From Promethearchaeia archaeon (lineage in GTDB: Archaea; Asgardarchaeota; Lokiarchaeia; Sigyniarchaeales; SOKP01): 64,000 bases of DNA. Shown here piece by piece: positions 3,182 through 11,800 of this stretch. The notes under the pieces are model-generated. The model was given only the letters and a program-made list of their open reading frames with translations, was not told where the DNA came from and did not search any database. A program made the position numbers and the translations under genes. Every line of letters starts with the position of its first letter. Within the stretch, counting starts at the first letter, position 1. The stretch lies in assembly GCA_029856125.1 (NCBI GenBank), contig JAHQWJ010000138.1:20521-84520 (forward strand). Reading direction: 5' to 3'.

Positions 3182-4576
3182 CTAAGATTTATCGTTAATT
3201 TCTTTTAGTAATTTCTTCGCATTATTTTCGATATAAGCTCCACACAGAGGACTAAAGCACATAAATGGTTCATACCCGCCTTCCTTAATATACATTTCTA
3301 GTGGGAATAAATAACCTATCCAATCTTGAGTATTCTGGAAAATTAGCGTGTTTTCCTTTTTAGTTGGGGCATGAGAAATTAGAGTTTTTCCAATATCTTC
3401 AAATAATTCGCCGGGAATTGTTATTATTCCAAAAGTATTACCATTACCAGCTGTAAATTTAATAAAATGAATTACTGTTTTTCCATAATTCTTTAAATTT
3501 TTGCGTTCAACCGTAAAAAATGGAAAGTTAACAGACTTGTAATCAAACTTGGCTATTTTAAACAAGAAATATTTTTTTAATACCCACTTTGCTTTATTTG
3601 AAAACCATACTTTTGAATAATATTTCGCATCTTTCTGGGGAATTAAAAATCTCTTCGTATTTATATCAACTTCTGTCAACGTAGAGTAATCCTTTTTAGG
3701 AATAGACTTAGCAACTTTTAAAGCTTCTTCTCCAATCGAATAACCTATTTTTTTAGTATGTTTGTAGGTTCCAAGCTGATCATAGGATATTGTCTTGTCT
3801 TTTTCTATTTTTTCTAGGTTAGTCCCTGAGGTTGTTATTGGATTTAAATCTCCTGACGGACCGTTAAAATAAATAGCTTTAATGCTTCCGCTGGTTAAAT
3901 CATCAATTATAGAAATTACCCTCCCTGGAAAATCAGCAGATAACTTATCATTTTTATATGAAAGCGTGGTCGGATGACAAGAATAATTAATTATAATCCC
4001 TATTATCTTATTGTCTTCTAATTTTTTAAAAGCAATAACCCCTAAATCAGGTAAGACTTTCCGAGTTGGCCATCTTCGATTAAGTACAATATCAGGGTTA
4101 AAACTTTCTTTTTTCCAAGCTATTGTACATGGCTCTAGATCCTCAAATAATTTACTAACCATTCTCACAATTCTATTTGTTATCCGTACGATAAATCTAT
4201 CATTTTTGTTATCGGCAAACATCACCCCTTTTATGAATCCTAATGCTCCACCGGGATAATAAAACTCACCCGTAAGATCAAATGAGGAATGGGTGTGAGT
4301 GGCATGCAGAAATATTTCATCTGGATTTAACGACTTAAATTTTAAAATCAATCTCTTTTTAATATACTCAACAATCGAAAGGGGTAATTTTAATATATCA
4401 ACCGAAATCATTAATAAATAATTATTATTATTACCATTATTTATGTTTAGTAAAACACCATAAGCATGAATATCGTCCAACTTTCCTAAGCAAGGGTCTT
4501 TACGAGAATAACCTGCCATGGGTTTTCCTATAAAATCCTTTGGTGTAATTTTTGTACTATTAAACGCAACTTTCAT
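3182..4576 (-). CDS. Neutral/alkaline ceramidase-like hydrolase
   Basis: KITP...PMAGY, ATHTHS, NYSCHPT, LSADFPG, GPSGDLNP, IPGELF, GGYE motifs. Confidence 0.75.
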   Translation of the reverse strand: MKVAFNSTKITPKDFIGKPMAGYSRKDPCLGKLDDIHAYGVLLNINNGNNNNYLLMISVDILKLPLSIVEYIKKRLILKFKSLNPDEIFLHATHTHSSFDLTGEFYYPGGALGFIKGVMFADNKNDRFIVRITNRIVRMVSKLFEDLEPCTIAWKKESFNPDIVLNRRWPTRKVLPDLGVIAFKKLEDNKIIGIIINYSCHPTTLSYKNDKLSADFPGRVISIIDDLTSGSIKAIYFNGPSGDLNPITTSGTNLEKIEKDKTISYDQLGTYKHTKKIGYSIGEEALKVAKSIPKKDYSTLTEVDINTKRFLIPQKDAKYYSKVWFSNKAKWVLKKYFLFKIAKFDYKSVNFPFFTVERKNLKNYGKTVIHFIKFTAGNGNTFGIITIPGELFEDIGKTLISHAPTKKENTLIFQNTQDWIGYLFPLEMYIKEGGYEPFMCFSPLCGAYIENNAKKLLKEINDKS

Positions 4577-4711: not shown

Positions 4712-5005
4712 ATGGCTTTGAATAAATTAGATTTACTAGGACTTGAAGGGGTCATTTCCAATTACAAACAAGGTCGTCACACAATTCACCTAAAGCACTG
4801 TATAATCGTATTTCCAAATATTATTAACAGAAAAGAGGCTAATAAATTAATTGGAAGGACCGTTGTATGGGAAAGTTCTACGGGAAAGCAATTGAAAGGA
4901 ATAATTACACGAGCACATGGTAATAATGGTGCTATTAGAGCTCATTTCAAAAAAGCCGGCGTTCCTGGGCAGGCGTTAGGCACAAAAATTAAAATAATTA
5001 AATAG
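4712..5005 (+). CDS. rpl35ae: 50S ribosomal protein L35Ae
   Basis: GIITRAHGNNGAIRAHF and PGQALG signature. Confidence 0.92.
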   Translation: MALNKLDLLGLEGVISNYKQGRHTIHLKHCIIVFPNIINRKEANKLIGRTVVWESSTGKQLKGIITRAHGNNGAIRAHFKKAGVPGQALGTKIKIIK

Positions 5006-5169
5006 TTCTTATTCAATCGATTCTTATTTTTCTTCTTAGTTATATCTGAATATTACATGATACGGGAATAATATAGCTTTTTTTATGTTTTAGAATTTCT
5101 TATTCTTCTGATAAAGCGATCAAAAATTGGTTGTTTTTAAATTTAAATAATTCGGGTTTAAAACTTATT

Positions 5170-7260
5170 ATGTCGGAGCCACACTTCCAAATTTGCCGTT
5201 TCTGTCAAAGAAATGTTAAATTAGCGTATTATTGTGAAAGTTGTGGGACCAGCTGTTGTTCGGACTGTCTTCACGAAGAAAAAATTAAAACATTTGTTTG
5301 TCAAGATTGTGACTCAACAGATATAACTATTTCTGAATCAGGAGATAAGAAGATATGTAAAGATTGCGGTGCTGAGAACATAGAAAGTTCCAATCAGCTC
5401 CTAAAATCATGTCCAAAATGCCATTCGAACCAAATTATTAATATCTATGAAAAAAAAGAAGATTTAGAAAAACATTTTTTGGAGCTAATTAAAAACTCAA
5501 GAGGTTTCATAACTCCCTTAAGAGATTTATTAGGGTCTTTGTATCGATTAAAACAAAAAGTTATAGATGCAAGAGCTCCCCCTGTTAGGTGTTTTCACTA
5601 CCCTACTATGGAATTAGATCTATTAGCTCTCTTCAAGTTATTTATATATGCGAAAGAAAATCTTATAGAAAAAATTCGTAATTTTCTTCAACATCTATCG
5701 CTTAATAAAGAATATTTTTTTGATATTTACACGCAACAAAATTCGAATATAAAGATTATTGAAGATATTTTAGAGAATTTAACGAGAAGCTATAATTCAA
5801 TAAATTCTTTTATAGCCAATAATGTAAAAACAATTAGTACGAGCGTCGAGACTCTTTCAAAAAATCTCAATTTTATTGATAAGATAACATTTTATTTCAT
5901 AAATTATCTAAAGTTTCTGAATCTAGCCGACGAAGAAAAACCCGTATATGCAATATATGCAAAACTATCTAACGGCCTTAATACTCAAGATAAATTCAAA
6001 AAAGATAAAGGAATTCTTTTTATAACTAATTTTGACCTTTCTTTTGTTCGTGAATATGGGAAGCGAAAGAAGAAGCAAGAGGGTATCTTTAAAGCTCCCG
6101 TAAAGGATTTAACCAAAGTTCAAATCAGAGGAAAAATTTTCAAGAAACTTTATATTGAGTTTCCTTACGGTAGATATGAATTTTCTCTTCCTCCCAACTC
6201 TGCTTCTAGAGTATTAGATTATATTTTACTCGCAAGAAGTTTTGACGAGACAATCGTTTACGATAAAGAGGCTGCTCAAAAACTTTTTAATATTGAGGTT
6301 GATTTGAGTGATCTAACGAACTTTATTGAGGAAGCCATCAATTCTTTCTTCAGTTTGAAATGTAAATATAATAATGTTAATCCAAATAATGGATTGGCTA
6401 ATCACAGTCAGGTATCGCAGGCATTTAATCAAAACCCGAATTATTTGTCTAATATCACAGCAAGTCAGCCTTTGTATAATCCTTATCAAAATAGAAATCC
6501 CAATGATCCAAACTTTTCCTATTATTCTAATCCGAATTATCAAAATTTACCCGGAAATCCATTATTCCATCCTGGAAACATAAAAAACCCTGGAAATTCA
6601 AATTACAATTACAATAACGTACCGATTAATCCTCCACCGATTTATAATCAGGACGAATTTTTCTTACAAAACTTAATCGATAACAATAGGATTCAAAATT
6701 ACAAACCCACAAGTTTTAACAATGGTTTCGGAAATCGCATTACAAACGCGGAGGAAAAAAATTTATTGATGAGAAAATTAGAACAATTACAAAAATATGG
6801 CAGAATTTTTCCTAACACACCACCCAATAACTCATATAACTTTGATGTTTTGAAAAACAATCCGGCATACTATGAGCCAATAGAAAGGGGTAGACGAATG
6901 CCGCAATATGACGATTATTCAAAAAATCACCTATCTGAATTATTCAATCGTGATTCTATTTCAAATTATCCAGATGAAAGGTCAAAACATTACTCAAAAA
7001 AGCATAGTAAAACAAGACGTAAAAAAATGTTTGACCTACAAAAAGAGAAATACAGCCTTGAAGAAACGCTAAAAGCTTTAGACTCTAAATTTGAATCCGG
7101 AAATATCTCCGAAATAGATTTCTTTAAAAACTTTAAGAATTTACAAAAGGAAATTTATATAATCGAGAAAAACCTTGAAGTTTTAGATGATGACATGGAA
7201 AATGACGAGTTTTTAAGGAATACACCAAAAGAAATTGACAGAAAAAGATATTACTCTTAA
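5170..7260 (+). CDS. Multidomain protein: multi-CxxC Zn fingers, coiled coil, PH/GRAM-like domain, Asn/Pro/Gln/Tyr-rich linker, C-terminal steadiness-box (Vps23/TSG101 core)-like segment
   Basis: Several CxxC pairs in the first ~100 aa; KGILFITNFDLSF...KAPVKDLTKVQIRGKIFKKLYIEF PH-like pattern; SLEETLKALDSKFESGNISEIDFFKNFKNLQKEIYII. ATG 5170 preferred over TTG 5131. Confidence 0.6.
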   Translation: MSEPHFQICRFCQRNVKLAYYCESCGTSCCSDCLHEEKIKTFVCQDCDSTDITISESGDKKICKDCGAENIESSNQLLKSCPKCHSNQIINIYEKKEDLEKHFLELIKNSRGFITPLRDLLGSLYRLKQKVIDARAPPVRCFHYPTMELDLLALFKLFIYAKENLIEKIRNFLQHLSLNKEYFFDIYTQQNSNIKIIEDILENLTRSYNSINSFIANNVKTISTSVETLSKNLNFIDKITFYFINYLKFLNLADEEKPVYAIYAKLSNGLNTQDKFKKDKGILFITNFDLSFVREYGKRKKKQEGIFKAPVKDLTKVQIRGKIFKKLYIEFPYGRYEFSLPPNSASRVLDYILLARSFDETIVYDKEAAQKLFNIEVDLSDLTNFIEEAINSFFSLKCKYNNVNPNNGLANHSQVSQAFNQNPNYLSNITASQPLYNPYQNRNPNDPNFSYYSNPNYQNLPGNPLFHPGNIKNPGNSNYNYNNVPINPPPIYNQDEFFLQNLIDNNRIQNYKPTSFNNGFGNRITNAEEKNLLMRKLEQLQKYGRIFPNTPPNNSYNFDVLKNNPAYYEPIERGRRMPQYDDYSKNHLSELFNRDSISNYPDERSKHYSKKHSKTRRKKMFDLQKEKYSLEETLKALDSKFESGNISEIDFFKNFKNLQKEIYIIEKNLEVLDDDMENDEFLRNTPKEIDRKRYYS

Positions 7261-7296: not shown

Positions 7297-7950
7297 CTAG
7301 CTCCCTTCCAACTCTTTTCGCAATTTATCTATCTCATCTTCAAGTTTTGCCTTTGTTTTTACTCCCGGTTCTTCTTCTATTTCTTCAAAATCTGAAATAT
7401 AGGCAAGTTCATCGTCAGGGACCTCTGGCATTTGACCACCTTGTTCTAAAAGCATTTCAGTTTCAAGTTGGTTTAACTCGTCAGTTATATCAATTGCTAA
7501 ATCAATTTCAGGATCACCAGCAAGAATTTCCGCAGACTCTTCTATTTCCGACACATATAGTTCAGAGTCCTCTGCGATTTCAGCAATCTTTTCGGGGGCA
7601 ACTGTAGTAGCTATAGTCTGTAGTTCGTCCCTAATCCCGCCCATTAAGTCTCCCGTCATGGAAATCATCCTGCCCTCAGAAATTGCTTCGATTTGGCGTT
7701 CTATCTTAGATCGAATATTGTTTTGACGATCCACCTTCATTTGATACTGTTTATGGTGAATAAGGTAATTCTTAGCCCTGGTTCTCTCTCCTCTCTTTAT
7801 CGCAATTTTAGCGTTCTTTCTGGCGATTTCTGCTCTTTTGTTGTAGGTTTTATTTGATAATGCAATTTTTCTGATATGTGCTTTAGCTTGAATAACAAGC
7901 TCAGTCTTTTCTTTACCTTTTCTAGGAAAAAGTTTTTTTTTAATTGCCAT
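7297..7950 (-). CDS. ESCRT-III Snf7-family protein (Vps20/32/60-like)
   Basis: Basic helical N-half (AKIAIKRGERTRAKNYL), acidic C-half, MPEVP MIM2-like motif, terminal amphipathic helix. Confidence 0.85.
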   Translation of the reverse strand: MAIKKKLFPRKGKEKTELVIQAKAHIRKIALSNKTYNKRAEIARKNAKIAIKRGERTRAKNYLIHHKQYQMKVDRQNNIRSKIERQIEAISEGRMISMTGDLMGGIRDELQTIATTVAPEKIAEIAEDSELYVSEIEESAEILAGDPEIDLAIDITDELNQLETEMLLEQGGQMPEVPDDELAYISDFEEIEEEPGVKTKAKLEDEIDKLRKELEGS

Positions 7951-10510: not shown

Positions 10511-10681
10511 AAAGATTCAATCGTAATCGATAAAAGTAATGGTAAAGCGCGCTTAAAGTTTCCCTATTGTCAATATATTGTTTTAGTTGTACAAAATAAC
10601 AATAAAATATATAATTTTAAATTTAATATATTAAACTAAGTACGCTTTAGCACAATTAAATTTCTTATTTTATTGAGAGTA

Positions 10682-11800
10682 ATGTCAAAAGAAACTGAAA
10701 AACCTCAGGTAACAAAATTTTGCGTGTATTGTGGAACTACAATCCAAGAGGACTTAGCTTATTGCCCAAATCCTAAATGTGGGAAATCAGTAGTCAATAT
10801 TAAACCAAGTAAGGATAAAATCGATCAAGCGAAACCTATGCCAAAACCAATTAAAAAAGAACCTATATCGCGCAAATGTTCGAATTGTGGATCGATTATA
10901 ACTTCTATGGTATTAGAACAGTGTCCTATATGTGATTCAAAATTAGAAAAAATTCCTGAACAAGAAATCGCAATCCAAAGCAAAAAACATCAAAGTAGAA
11001 TAGGGTATGTATTTAAAAATAAAAAATTGGTTCCAGAACAAAAGTTTGTATTGAAAAAAAGCGAATGGAATTTCAGAGAGGGGGTAAGGGTATTTAGTAA
11101 TGCTCTTATGGTATATATCACAGTTCGATTAGTAATTACTATGTTGTTAACTTTACAACTAGGTCCATCTGAAACATTAGATTTAAACATGACAACAATT
11201 CTCTTAAGTCAAGCTCCGGATATCGTTTTAGGAATCTATCCCTTGTATTATATTTATTCAAAAAGACATAATCTCAAAAAATTAGGGGTGATCTTTAATA
11301 AAAAATCGTTAGTAATTGCCACTATAGTTGGCATCGCCGGAAGTATTGGATTAGTTTTAATTGATAATTTTTCGTCCCTATTAATCGATTTTATGTACAA
11401 ATCGGGTATAAGTTTCTACGATATCGTTGCCTATTTAGACGAAGAATATCTTGTCCTTCAAAACTCGAATATAATTCAGGTAATAATACTTATCCTTCTT
11501 TTAAGTTTATCAGTAATTTCCACTGAACTAGTATTTAGAGGTGTATTACACAGAACTTTAAAAGCGCATTTTGACAGCAAATTTCTGGGAAAATTTTCAG
11601 TAATTGTTATCGTAGCCTTGATTTACTCATTTCTGTTTCTATTTTTTACATTACCCGTTGGGATATATTTCTTTTTAGCAAACTTCATGGTTTCTATATT
11701 CTTGGGGGTAGTCTATGAAATTAATAAGAACCTAGTAAGTACAATAATGGCTAGCTTGATTTACAACATTACTCTCATTATCTTAATTATCTATTTCTAA
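10682..11800 (+). CDS. Double zinc-ribbon + CPBP (Abi/CAAX protease-like) membrane protein, catalytic motif degenerate
   Basis: CVYC/CPNPKC and CSNC/CPIC at N-terminus; STELVFRG (EExxFRG variant); multiple TM helices; canonical His residues not evident. Confidence 0.7.
   Translation: MSKETEKPQVTKFCVYCGTTIQEDLAYCPNPKCGKSVVNIKPSKDKIDQAKPMPKPIKKEPISRKCSNCGSIITSMVLEQCPICDSKLEKIPEQEIAIQSKKHQSRIGYVFKNKKLVPEQKFVLKKSEWNFREGVRVFSNALMVYITVRLVITMLLTLQLGPSETLDLNMTTILLSQAPDIVLGIYPLYYIYSKRHNLKKLGVIFNKKSLVIATIVGIAGSIGLVLIDNFSSLLIDFMYKSGISFYDIVAYLDEEYLVLQNSNIIQVIILILLLSLSVISTELVFRGVLHRTLKAHFDSKFLGKFSVIVIVALIYSFLFLFFTLPVGIYFFLANFMVSIFLGVVYEINKNLVSTIMASLIYNITLIILIIYF

Follow-up and report, generated by a model that had tools for sequence, protein, structure and literature searches.

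Accounts of the origin of eukaryotic membrane trafficking leave open how Asgard archaea recruit their ESCRT machinery to membranes. In a MAG of a Lokiarchaeial archaeon (Promethearchaeota), a gene that converges tail-to-tail on an ESCRT-III gene raises the question of what its product might contribute to this step. An initial annotation of the 64,000-nucleotide stretch of DNA analyzed here (the window) had read the product as a putative ESCRT-I-like adaptor of unusual architecture. Our comparison of its domain order and gene order with published descriptions made it nearly certain that the protein belongs to Znr_CC_PH_SB (asCOG cog.011556), a family specific to Asgard archaea. Makarova et al. 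2024 (mBio, PMC10936438) describe this family, also written Znr_PH_CC_SB, as consisting of three Zn ribbons, a coiled coil, a PH domain, and a steadiness box, and consider it likely to be part of Asgard ESCRT-I; Lu et al. 2023 (bioRxiv 10.1101/2023.07.25.550441) give it under the name 'Steadiness/Vps23 box'. Domain order, gene neighborhood, and phylum are all shared with the published family and nothing essential differs, although the linker of the window protein is longer than that of the 650-aa member from Lokiarchaeum GC14_75. The architecture regarded as unusual is thus, for Asgard archaea, that of a described phylum-wide family. Because the family, the domain reading, and the ESCRT-I assignment were already published in 2024, the window gene is a further copy and no new kind of system. 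A literature search for experiments on the family found none.

The open reading frame spans 5131..7260 on the forward strand, and the ATG at 5170 is the likely translation start, since the homologues share the same MSE... beginning. Full-length homologues of the 696-aa product show 49-99% identity, and our profile scan found matches to the family in 313 of 400 Asgard genomes, where distant matches can be hairpin-only. The counterpart of the window gene in Lokiarchaeum GC14_75 is probably Lokiarch_16740, judging by gene position. A publication of 2018 (PMC5840170) gives that locus tag as a homologue of Vps23, two locus tags apart from Lokiarch_16760 of the B-type Vps60/Vps20 rows, and cog.011556 stands two genes ahead of Vps20 in GC14_75. 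The features of the locus are collected in the table.

Table. Features of the Znr_CC_PH_SB locus, with positions in the window and residues of the window protein.
Feature	Residues	Position	Strand	Basis or remark
Ribosomal protein L35Ae gene		4712..5005	+	Pfam E 5e-14; conserved upstream neighbor within the order
Znr_CC_PH_SB gene		5170..7260	+	696 aa plus stop; ATG at 5170
N-terminal Zn module	1-91	5170..5442	+	Six CxxC pairs; three Cys4 sites predicted
Helical stalk	92-250	5443..5919	+	Three long helices, 92-135, 147-178, and 191-245 (AF2)
PH/GRAM-like domain	255-360	5932..6249	+	AF2 model, VIA-align
Short post-PH helices	361-402	6250..6375	+	AF2 helices 358-361, 366-374, and 380-401; conserved EEAINSFFSLKC motif
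N/P/Q/Y-rich disordered linker	403-605	6376..6984	+	AF2 pLDDT below 50
Linker island FFLQN...NRIQNYKP	497-513	6658..6708	+	Alignment
Short linker helix EEKNLLMRKLEQLQK	527-543	6748..6798	+	AF2; kept in most, not all, homologues
NHLSELF motif	586-592	6925..6945	+	H587 and F592 invariant
Steadiness-box-like C-terminal helical hairpin	606-683	6985..7218	+	AF2 helices 606-642 and 648-683
Extreme C-terminal tail (F/I)D+K+Y(Y/F)(S/T)		7231..7257	+	Conserved in Lokiarchaeial homologues
Gap between convergent stop codons		7261..7296	.	36 nt
Convergent ESCRT-III gene, Vps20/32/60 (B-type) class		7297..7950	-	217 aa; Pfam Snf7 E 2.5e-9

The domain layout proposed in the initial annotation agreed closely with our models, from the Cys-rich Zn modules and the coiled coil to a PH/GRAM-like domain that had been placed at about 5930-6240, a linker of about 190 residues (about 203 here, and predicted to be disordered), and a C-terminal motif at about 7050-7170, which falls inside the predicted hairpin. 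The Zn module carries its CxxC pairs at C9, 12, 22, 25, 30, 33, 44, 47, 63, 66, 81, and 84. None of these 12 cysteines varies among 40 close homologues or among 21 phylum-wide ones, and in the latter set they are, together with S86, the sole invariant positions of the N-terminal 97 residues. Such a pattern supports the prediction of three Cys4 sites, and the AF2 model of the module alone (pLDDT 84) predicted beta-hairpin knuckles. The helices of the stalk were modeled with a pLDDT of about 80-93.

The PH/GRAM-like domain superposed on known structures with VIA-align Z-scores of 11-13.4 and rmsd values of 2.1-3.0 A over about 100-126 residues, the tied best matches including Trio PH, Lam6 PH-like, MTMR2 PH-GRAM, EAP45 GLUE (2hth_B), and bacterial PH structures. 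The domain contains two conserved basic loops, KFKKDKG and GKRKKKQ, as well as the GILFITNFDLSF motif, and in distant homologues Pfam bPH_3 scored above its cut-off while the GRAM cut-off was nearly reached. DH-PH (RhoGEF) proteins were the top Foldseek matches, but this homology was rejected, as the rmsd was 10-17 A once the helices were included and the PH part alone superposed in VIA-align. The linker that follows varies among homologues in both length and sequence and is shorter in the distant ones, whose proteins measure 508-533 aa, and its FFLQN...NRIQNYKP island retains F497, Q500, Q509, N510, and Y511 without change in 40 Lokiarchaeial homologues.

The C-terminal hairpin (AF2 pLDDT 73-88) carries the suggested relationship to ESCRT-I. 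Vps23_core was the top Pfam match of the C-terminus, covering aa 618-664 when the whole protein was searched (E 0.0015, 18.9 bits) and reaching E 1.3e-4 and 22.3 bits with the C-terminal domain alone, both below the curated gathering cut-off of 26.8 bits, which is to be expected of so divergent a family, and it recurred in 34 of 40 homologues. Generic coiled-coil profiles scored equally or better in parts of the family, with APG6_N matching 21 of 22 C-terminal domains, and prefoldin profiles likewise matched the C-terminus. The steadiness-box ending claimed earlier was borne out as far as the best-matching Pfam family is concerned, but not at the level of the Pfam cut-off, and coiled-coil profiles compete with it. 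Since the whole-protein profile returned only noise-level Zn-ribbon matches from the PDB, the C-terminal profile was run separately against 177,635 PDB sequences. Yeast Vps28 N-terminal and Vps23 core chains appeared in its top 18 with the whole hairpin aligned, at E-values of 0.08-0.4, and Get1 and tektin matched as well. A six-frame search of the genome (14,896 ORFs) with the same profile found the N-terminal hairpin of Vps28 at E 0.0094, and hhalign aligned the hairpin to Vps28 residues 13-58 with a probability of 5%. These profile comparisons point weakly to a reciprocal link between the hairpin and the genome's own Vps28. The hairpin thus resembles the ESCRT-I steadiness box, every match being sub-threshold.

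Comparison with the known ESCRT components places the protein beside them without equating it with any. As in Vps23/TSG101 (PF09454; 2F66, 2P22, 2CAZ), a C-terminal hairpin with a steadiness-box-like pattern follows a low-complexity region and the gene lies in an ESCRT context, whereas the UEV domain is absent, the stalk helices are N-terminal, the Zn and PH modules have no place in Vps23, and the Pfam score is sub-gathering. Pfam gave no UEV or UQ_con match on the window protein, whose N-terminus was modeled as Zn modules. An identity with Vps23 was accordingly rejected, as the protein lacks a UEV and has the PH domain and 200 disordered residues between its main stalk (92-245) and the hairpin. 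In the AF2 model the opening helix of the hairpin (606-642) is long and might itself contribute a short stalk. The likeness to the Vps36/EAP45 GLUE domain (2HTH) lies in a GRAM-like PH fold combined with zinc fingers in one chain, for which membrane binding is the published analogy. EAP45 GLUE (2hth_B) matched with Z 11.7 and an rmsd of 3.4 A over 106 residues, a score at which GLUE is indistinguishable from other PH/GRAM folds. An identity with Vps36 was also rejected, because the winged-helix/EAP30 part is missing (no Pfam match to EAP30 on the window protein and no fold of two winged-helix domains in the AF2 model) and the Zn sites lie at the N-terminus instead of within the PH fold. With crenarchaeal CdvA the protein shares the character of a membrane-proximal coiled-coil/hairpin protein encoded beside ESCRT-III, but it lacks a PRC barrel, and no E3B-type peptide is known from it. 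These sequence comparisons make it reasonable to describe the protein as an ESCRT-I-like adaptor whose membrane sensing is GLUE-like, and the combination in one chain proposed in the initial annotation coincides with the in-silico interpretation already in print (PMC10936438).

The gene neighborhood provides the second line of evidence. The convergent neighbor matched the 'Vps20/32/60-like protein (ESCRT-III)' of PDB 9fn1_U at E 1.8e-87, and the two genes end 36 nt apart, exactly as annotated. Of 41 informative Lokiarchaeial loci, 40 have a convergent ESCRT-III gene downstream, as do six of the eight other families sampled (f3, f11, f19, f20, f21, and f31), with convergent gaps of 4-100 nt in several families, while the other two (f18 and f7) showed no ESCRT-III near the Znr_CC_PH_SB gene. 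Linkage to ESCRT-III, for which a check of synteny across Asgard had been proposed, is thus kept across the phylum, and the adjoining gene is B-type in most lineages sampled. The recurrence of Vps23_core together with this phylum-wide pairing exceeds chance, and the possibility raised earlier that the C-terminus matches only SHOCT or coiled-coil profiles and that the linkage is not conserved did not materialize. Upstream, L35Ae was found in 48 of 50 related loci, in genome G135, and in the published Lokiarchaeum locus. The order in GC14_75 is L35Ae - cog.011556 - MetE - Vps20, the last convergent (PMC10936438 supplement); the window has the same order without MetE, and loci of 51% identity such as L028 carry a MetE-like gene. 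Convergent genes cannot share a transcript, and the linkage is therefore no operon. The earlier statement that the gene lies outside the classical ESCRT operon is correct for this genome but not for at least two families (f31 and f11), in which the gene lies within the canonical Vps25-Vps4-ESCRT-III cluster. For this reason, the Lokiarchaeial position looks lineage-specific, a split of the ESCRT cluster that other families keep.

The best overall explanation, to which we assign a probability of roughly 60%, is that the window protein, as a Znr_CC_PH_SB member, acts as an early ESCRT adaptor. The head formed by the Zn module, stalk, and PH domain would dock on the membrane through anionic lipid and possibly cargo or ubiquitin, and the flexible linker would leave the hairpin at the C-terminus free to pack against that at the N-terminus of Vps28 in an ESCRT-I-like headpiece, which may include another steadiness-box protein. 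The headpiece could then pass the signal via ESCRT-II (Vps22/Vps25), or directly, to the adjoining B-type ESCRT-III. B-type Asgard ESCRT-III initiates membrane remodeling (PMC11804906). Elsewhere, the genome encodes Vps28 (C33:6388-7035, minus strand), Vps4, an A-type ESCRT-III, EAP30/Vps22, and Vps25 (C126), together with a second steadiness-box protein, P0257 (C21:6944-8383, minus strand). Against the adaptor reading speak the simplicity of the helical hairpin as a fold and the fact that PH folds bind proteins as well as lipids.

A rather unlikely alternative to the adaptor is a direct recruiter of ESCRT-III resembling CdvA or Bro1/ALIX, which would sit on the membrane with its PH head, use the hairpin as a CdvA-like element, and nucleate the neighboring ESCRT-III while bypassing ESCRT-I and ESCRT-II. 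The neighbor conserved across the phylum is indeed an ESCRT-III gene, not Vps28 or Vps22, and the Vps28 and ESCRT-II genes of this genome sit on contigs other than that of the Znr_CC_PH_SB gene. Pfam CdvA matched 4 of 22 C-terminal domains weakly (best E 0.001), the CdvA hairpin and the steadiness box have been proposed as related (PMC10936438; Lu et al. preprint), and Asgard ESCRT-IIIB faces a barrier to nucleation on membranes, which factors acting upstream of it are expected to reduce (PMC11804906). Vps23_core, however, scored above CdvA on the window protein, the hairpin profile does find the Vps28 hairpin in the genome, and the ESCRT-III neighbor in f31 is A-type, not of the initiator type. 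Asgard ESCRT-III is not known to have a CdvB-type winged helix for CdvA-style docking. Slightly more doubtful is the proposal that the family supplies what the Asgard ESCRT-III initiator is missing, a nucleator that targets it to membranes and would be a functional counterpart of CdvA/Bro1 independent of ESCRT-I and ESCRT-II. In that case, the PH head would pick the membrane site, the hairpin or tail would seed polymerization of the ESCRT-III encoded tail-to-tail, and the convergent layout might couple both genes by way of overlapping 3' ends.

Much less probable is a TRIM-like scaffold of the ubiquitin system, in which a cross-braced RING/B-box Zn module and a coiled coil (RBCC/TRIM) would define the protein and its ESCRT linkage would be secondary. 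The long helical stalk directly after the Zn module fits such a plan, source records name homologues 'B-box zinc finger protein', and Pfam zf-B_box matched 2 of 40 close homologues and 2 distant ones at sub-threshold E-values of 0.006-0.02. Zn-ribbon, RING, and B-box folds each resembled the module weakly in Foldseek and VIA-wide searches with the domain-only AF2 model, which returned nothing significant for a FYVE, RING, or B-box identity. B-box, RING, and ZZ chains were among the best VIA-align matches at Z 3-4, but these are at noise level (best Z 4.0, with none of 48,161 chains at Z 5) and tied with Zn ribbons, those of Rpb2, MCM, and TFIIE matching equally well; moreover, Pfam Zn-ribbon families were matched more often than zf-B_box among homologues, and the published annotation is of three Zn ribbons (PMC10936438). 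The least probable reading, by a little, is that the protein is no ESCRT component, its C-terminus being a generic coiled-coil or SHOCT-like hairpin and the ESCRT-III neighborhood an inherited order without functional meaning. The sub-threshold steadiness-box scores and the competing APG6_N, prefoldin, and SHOCT profiles would allow this, and Lokiarchaeia keep L35Ae - gene - Snf7 - DHQS together as one syntenic block, so that the linkage there could be inertia. The pairing is nevertheless kept in six other families where L35Ae and DHQS are no longer neighbors, f31 and f11 hold the gene inside the core ESCRT cluster, and the hairpin profile singles out Vps28 among the six-frame ORFs. SHOCT (PF09851) itself was not supported: just 3 of 22 C-terminal domains matched it, with E-values no better than 0.022, no match at or below E 0.1 was found among the 40 full-length proteins, and it was absent from the matches of the window protein's own C-terminal domain up to E 10.

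With matches in most sampled Asgard genomes and a gene order tied to ESCRT-III, Znr_CC_PH_SB is a good experimental target for the early ESCRT adaptor reading. What the present analysis adds to the published description is modest, namely the count of the convergent ESCRT-III pairing, the apparent split of the cluster in Lokiarchaeia, and the weak link between the hairpin and Vps28. Distant families do not carry the (F/I)D+K+Y(Y/F)(S/T) tail. Two E2-like genes (UQ_con) were located on other contigs of the genome, and the Znr_CC_PH_SB protein was the sole PH-bearing, ESCRT-linked candidate noticed in it.

The gene is one more orthologue of an already published family, Znr_CC_PH_SB (asCOG cog.011556), and its 696-aa protein carries every testable feature of that family. 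The ATG at 5170 is most likely its start, as homologues share the same MSE... beginning. The feature is real and the initial annotation described it well: all the domain elements it had named were found in the ORF, the alignment and the structural model, at about the coordinates it gave. Makarova et al. (PMC10936438) described Znr_CC_PH_SB as "a likely ESCRT-I component", likely ancestral in Asgardarchaeota and absent in eukaryotes, and their supplement gives, for Lokiarchaeum GC14_75, the order L35Ae, cog.011556, MetE and then a Vps20 gene that is convergent. Lu et al. (10.1101/2023.07.25.550441) named cog.011556 "Steadiness/Vps23 box", and a 2018 review (PMC5840170) gave Lokiarch_16740 as the Asgard Vps23 homologue, with Lokiarch_16760 in the B-type Vps60/Vps20 rows. 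By gene position, Lokiarch_16740 is probably the cog.011556 protein, because its two-locus-tag spacing to 16760 fits the supplement's gene order. Our literature searches turned up no experiments on Znr_CC_PH_SB; the family is still worthwhile as an experimental target, while as a discovery this orthologue adds little.

Coordinates of the Znr_CC_PH_SB gene, its neighbours (window positions) and its predicted domains (residues)
Feature	Position	Strand	Remark
Ribosomal protein L35Ae gene	4712..5005	+	Upstream of Znr_CC_PH_SB gene
ORF of Znr_CC_PH_SB gene	5131..7260	+	
Snf7-family gene	7297..7950	-	Convergent, downstream, exactly 36 nt from Znr_CC_PH_SB gene
Beta-hairpin zinc knuckles	aa 1-91		AlphaFold2
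Three long helices	aa 92-245 (92-135, 147-178, 191-245)		AlphaFold2
Seven-stranded sandwich and capping helix (PH)	aa 255-360		AlphaFold2
Short helices	aa 358-401		AlphaFold2
Disordered linker with one helix at 527-543	aa 403-605		AlphaFold2
Helical hairpin	aa 606-683 (606-642 and 648-683)		AlphaFold2

The AlphaFold2 model, built from an alignment of 40 full-length homologues (50-86% identity), had a mean pLDDT of 65.6, with ordered parts at 78-93. All 12 cysteines of the six CxxC pairs in the Zn module are invariant, which supports a prediction of three Cys4 sites; when homologues of six additional Asgard families are compared, these cysteines and one serine are the only invariant positions in the N-terminal 97 residues. 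For the Zn module modeled alone (pLDDT 84), Foldseek returned no match at E < 0.2 and VIA-align none with Z > 4.0; Zn ribbons, RING, B-box and ZZ domains all matched it about equally. That the head of Zn module and coiled coil is TRIM-like is unlikely. The predicted PH fold is solid in the model (VIA-align Z 11-13.4, rmsd 2.1-3.0 Å over ~100-126 residues), its tied matches ranging over GRAM-type Lam6 and MTMR2, bacterial PH domains and the EAP45 GLUE domain (2hth_B, Z 11.7), and distant homologues pass the Pfam bPH_3 cut-off and nearly reach that of GRAM. Foldseek matches to DH-PH proteins were rejected, as the helical parts fail to superpose and the likeness is merely one of helices followed by PH. 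Short motifs conserved within Lokiarchaeia, FFLQN..NRIQNY (6658-6708), EEKNLLMRKLEQLQK (6748-6798) and NHLSELF (6925-6945), sit inside the otherwise variable linker, and the terminal tail FD+K+YY(S/T) (7231-7257) is absent from distant Asgard families; these conserved motifs are possible docking peptides.

The sequence evidence for a steadiness box in the C-terminal hairpin is sub-threshold taken alone, yet consistent and reciprocal. Pfam Vps23_core matched aa 618-664 of the whole protein (E 0.0015) and was the top family for the isolated C-terminus (E 1.3e-4; 22.3 bits, below the 26.8-bit cut-off), and it recurred in 34 of the 40 homologues and in distant members. In a search of 177,635 PDB sequences with a profile built from just the last 96 residues, N-terminal chains of yeast Vps28 (E 0.08-0.17) and core chains of Vps23/Stp22 (E 0.14-0.41) fell in the top 18, with alignments spanning the entire hairpin, although Get1 and tektin coiled coils scored equally well or better. 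Against all six-frame ORFs of the genome, the same profile recovered the gene itself at 1.4e-34 and the N-terminal hairpin of the genome's own Vps28 at E 0.0094; hhalign paired it with Vps28 residues 13-58 (30% identity, E 0.0075, probability just 5%). SHOCT, which the initial annotation had set against its own reading, matched three of 22 C-termini, with E-values no better than 0.022, and was not seen in any of the 40 homologues searched at full length. Two further hairpin proteins scored near 3e-6 and are candidate extra headpiece partners: P0257 (C21:6944-8383, minus strand; L060:3945-5366, minus strand), with 474 mostly disordered residues ending in a steadiness-box-like hairpin (E 3.4e-6), and an incomplete 93-aa ORF at the edge of its contig (C46:1-279; 2.6e-6). 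Identity with Vps23 itself was rejected (no UEV domain, a score under the Pfam cut-off and a different domain order), as was identity with Vps36, since the protein lacks winged helices and has its Zn sites outside the PH fold.

The convergent neighbor is a B-type (Vps20/32/60) ESCRT-III, matching PDB chain 9fn1_U, deposited as "Vps20/32/60-like protein (ESCRT-III)", over its whole length (E 1.8e-87); a close structural template therefore exists. The only other ESCRT-III in the genome, CHMP2A/CHMP1B-like and thus A-type, lies on contig C126 in the order EAP30(+)-Vps25(-)-Vps4(-)-ESCRT-IIIA(+), and Vps28 is on C33; the pair in the window thus stands apart from the core cluster. A Vps28 C-terminal-domain match (C147:20504-20776, plus strand; locus L003; 28.4 bits, above cut-off) lies within an 816-aa open frame, which appears to encode a multidomain Vps28_C protein of the kind known from Lokiarchaeia. 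Among 50 species-level Lokiarchaeial loci, 41 had enough downstream sequence, and 40 of these kept the block L35Ae-gene-convergent Snf7-DHQS, with nothing or a ~1-kb MetE-like gene between gene and Snf7.

Because this block could be mere synteny, other Asgard families were sampled. The gene follows EAP30-Vps25-Vps4-ESCRT-III in family f31 (A-type, convergent, 4-nt gap), Vps25-Vps4-IIIA-IIIB in f11 (convergent) and IIIA-IIIB in f19 (convergent, 14-nt gap); it is convergent with IIIB in f20 and, 2.2 kb away, in f21, lies 7.7 kb from ESCRT-III in f3, and is unlinked to it in f18 and f7. Tail-to-tail pairing with ESCRT-III looks ancient. The claim that the gene stands outside the operon held for the detached Lokiarchaeial pair but not for f31 and f11, where the gene is inside the cluster; the Lokiarchaeial position appears to have arisen when an ESCRT cluster, kept together by at least these two families, was split. 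In the f31 locus (L063:4136-6335, genome G312), the convergent ESCRT-III is CHMP1/3-like and last in the EAP30-Vps25-Vps4 cluster. Directly 3' of the f21 homologue (genome G117) lies an 80-aa ORF (L062:6317-6559, minus strand) with partial B-type ESCRT-III similarity (E 4.6e-6), perhaps a remnant or else a mini-ESCRT-III; the B-type gene 2.2 kb downstream is the full-length one. Profile matches occurred in 313/400 Asgard genomes, a count that overstates full-length members because weak matches in distant genomes (e.g., G002 and G303) can be hairpin-only.

Domain set, conservation pattern and gene linkage are established here directly. The Zn-stalk-PH head would bind the membrane, and perhaps also cargo or ubiquitin; the parallel with Vps36 led Makarova et al. 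(PMC10936438) to describe its PH domain as "expected to be membrane associated". The disordered linker would provide reach, and the hairpin, together with that of Vps28, may form an ESCRT-I-like headpiece acting on B-type ESCRT-III via ESCRT-II or directly. In Asgard reconstitutions, remodeling is initiated by B-type ESCRT-III (PMC11804906). The main rival is a CdvA/Bro1-like protein recruiting ESCRT-III directly, and it is favored by the conserved neighbor being ESCRT-III, not Vps28; the Vps23_core and Vps28 matches of the hairpin point to the ESCRT-I-like reading. A role unrelated to ESCRT is unlikely, given that recurrent linkage.

Two other ORFs of the window were observed. One, of 464 aa (3182-4576, minus strand) and conserved upstream of the gene in many related loci, matches the N-terminal domain of neutral/alkaline ceramidases below threshold (E 9.7e-6; 24.9 versus a 32.1-bit cut-off). 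The other, of 375 aa (10673-11800, plus strand), has double zinc-ribbon-like motifs at its N-terminus and a CAAX (Rce1-like) protease domain at its C-terminus.
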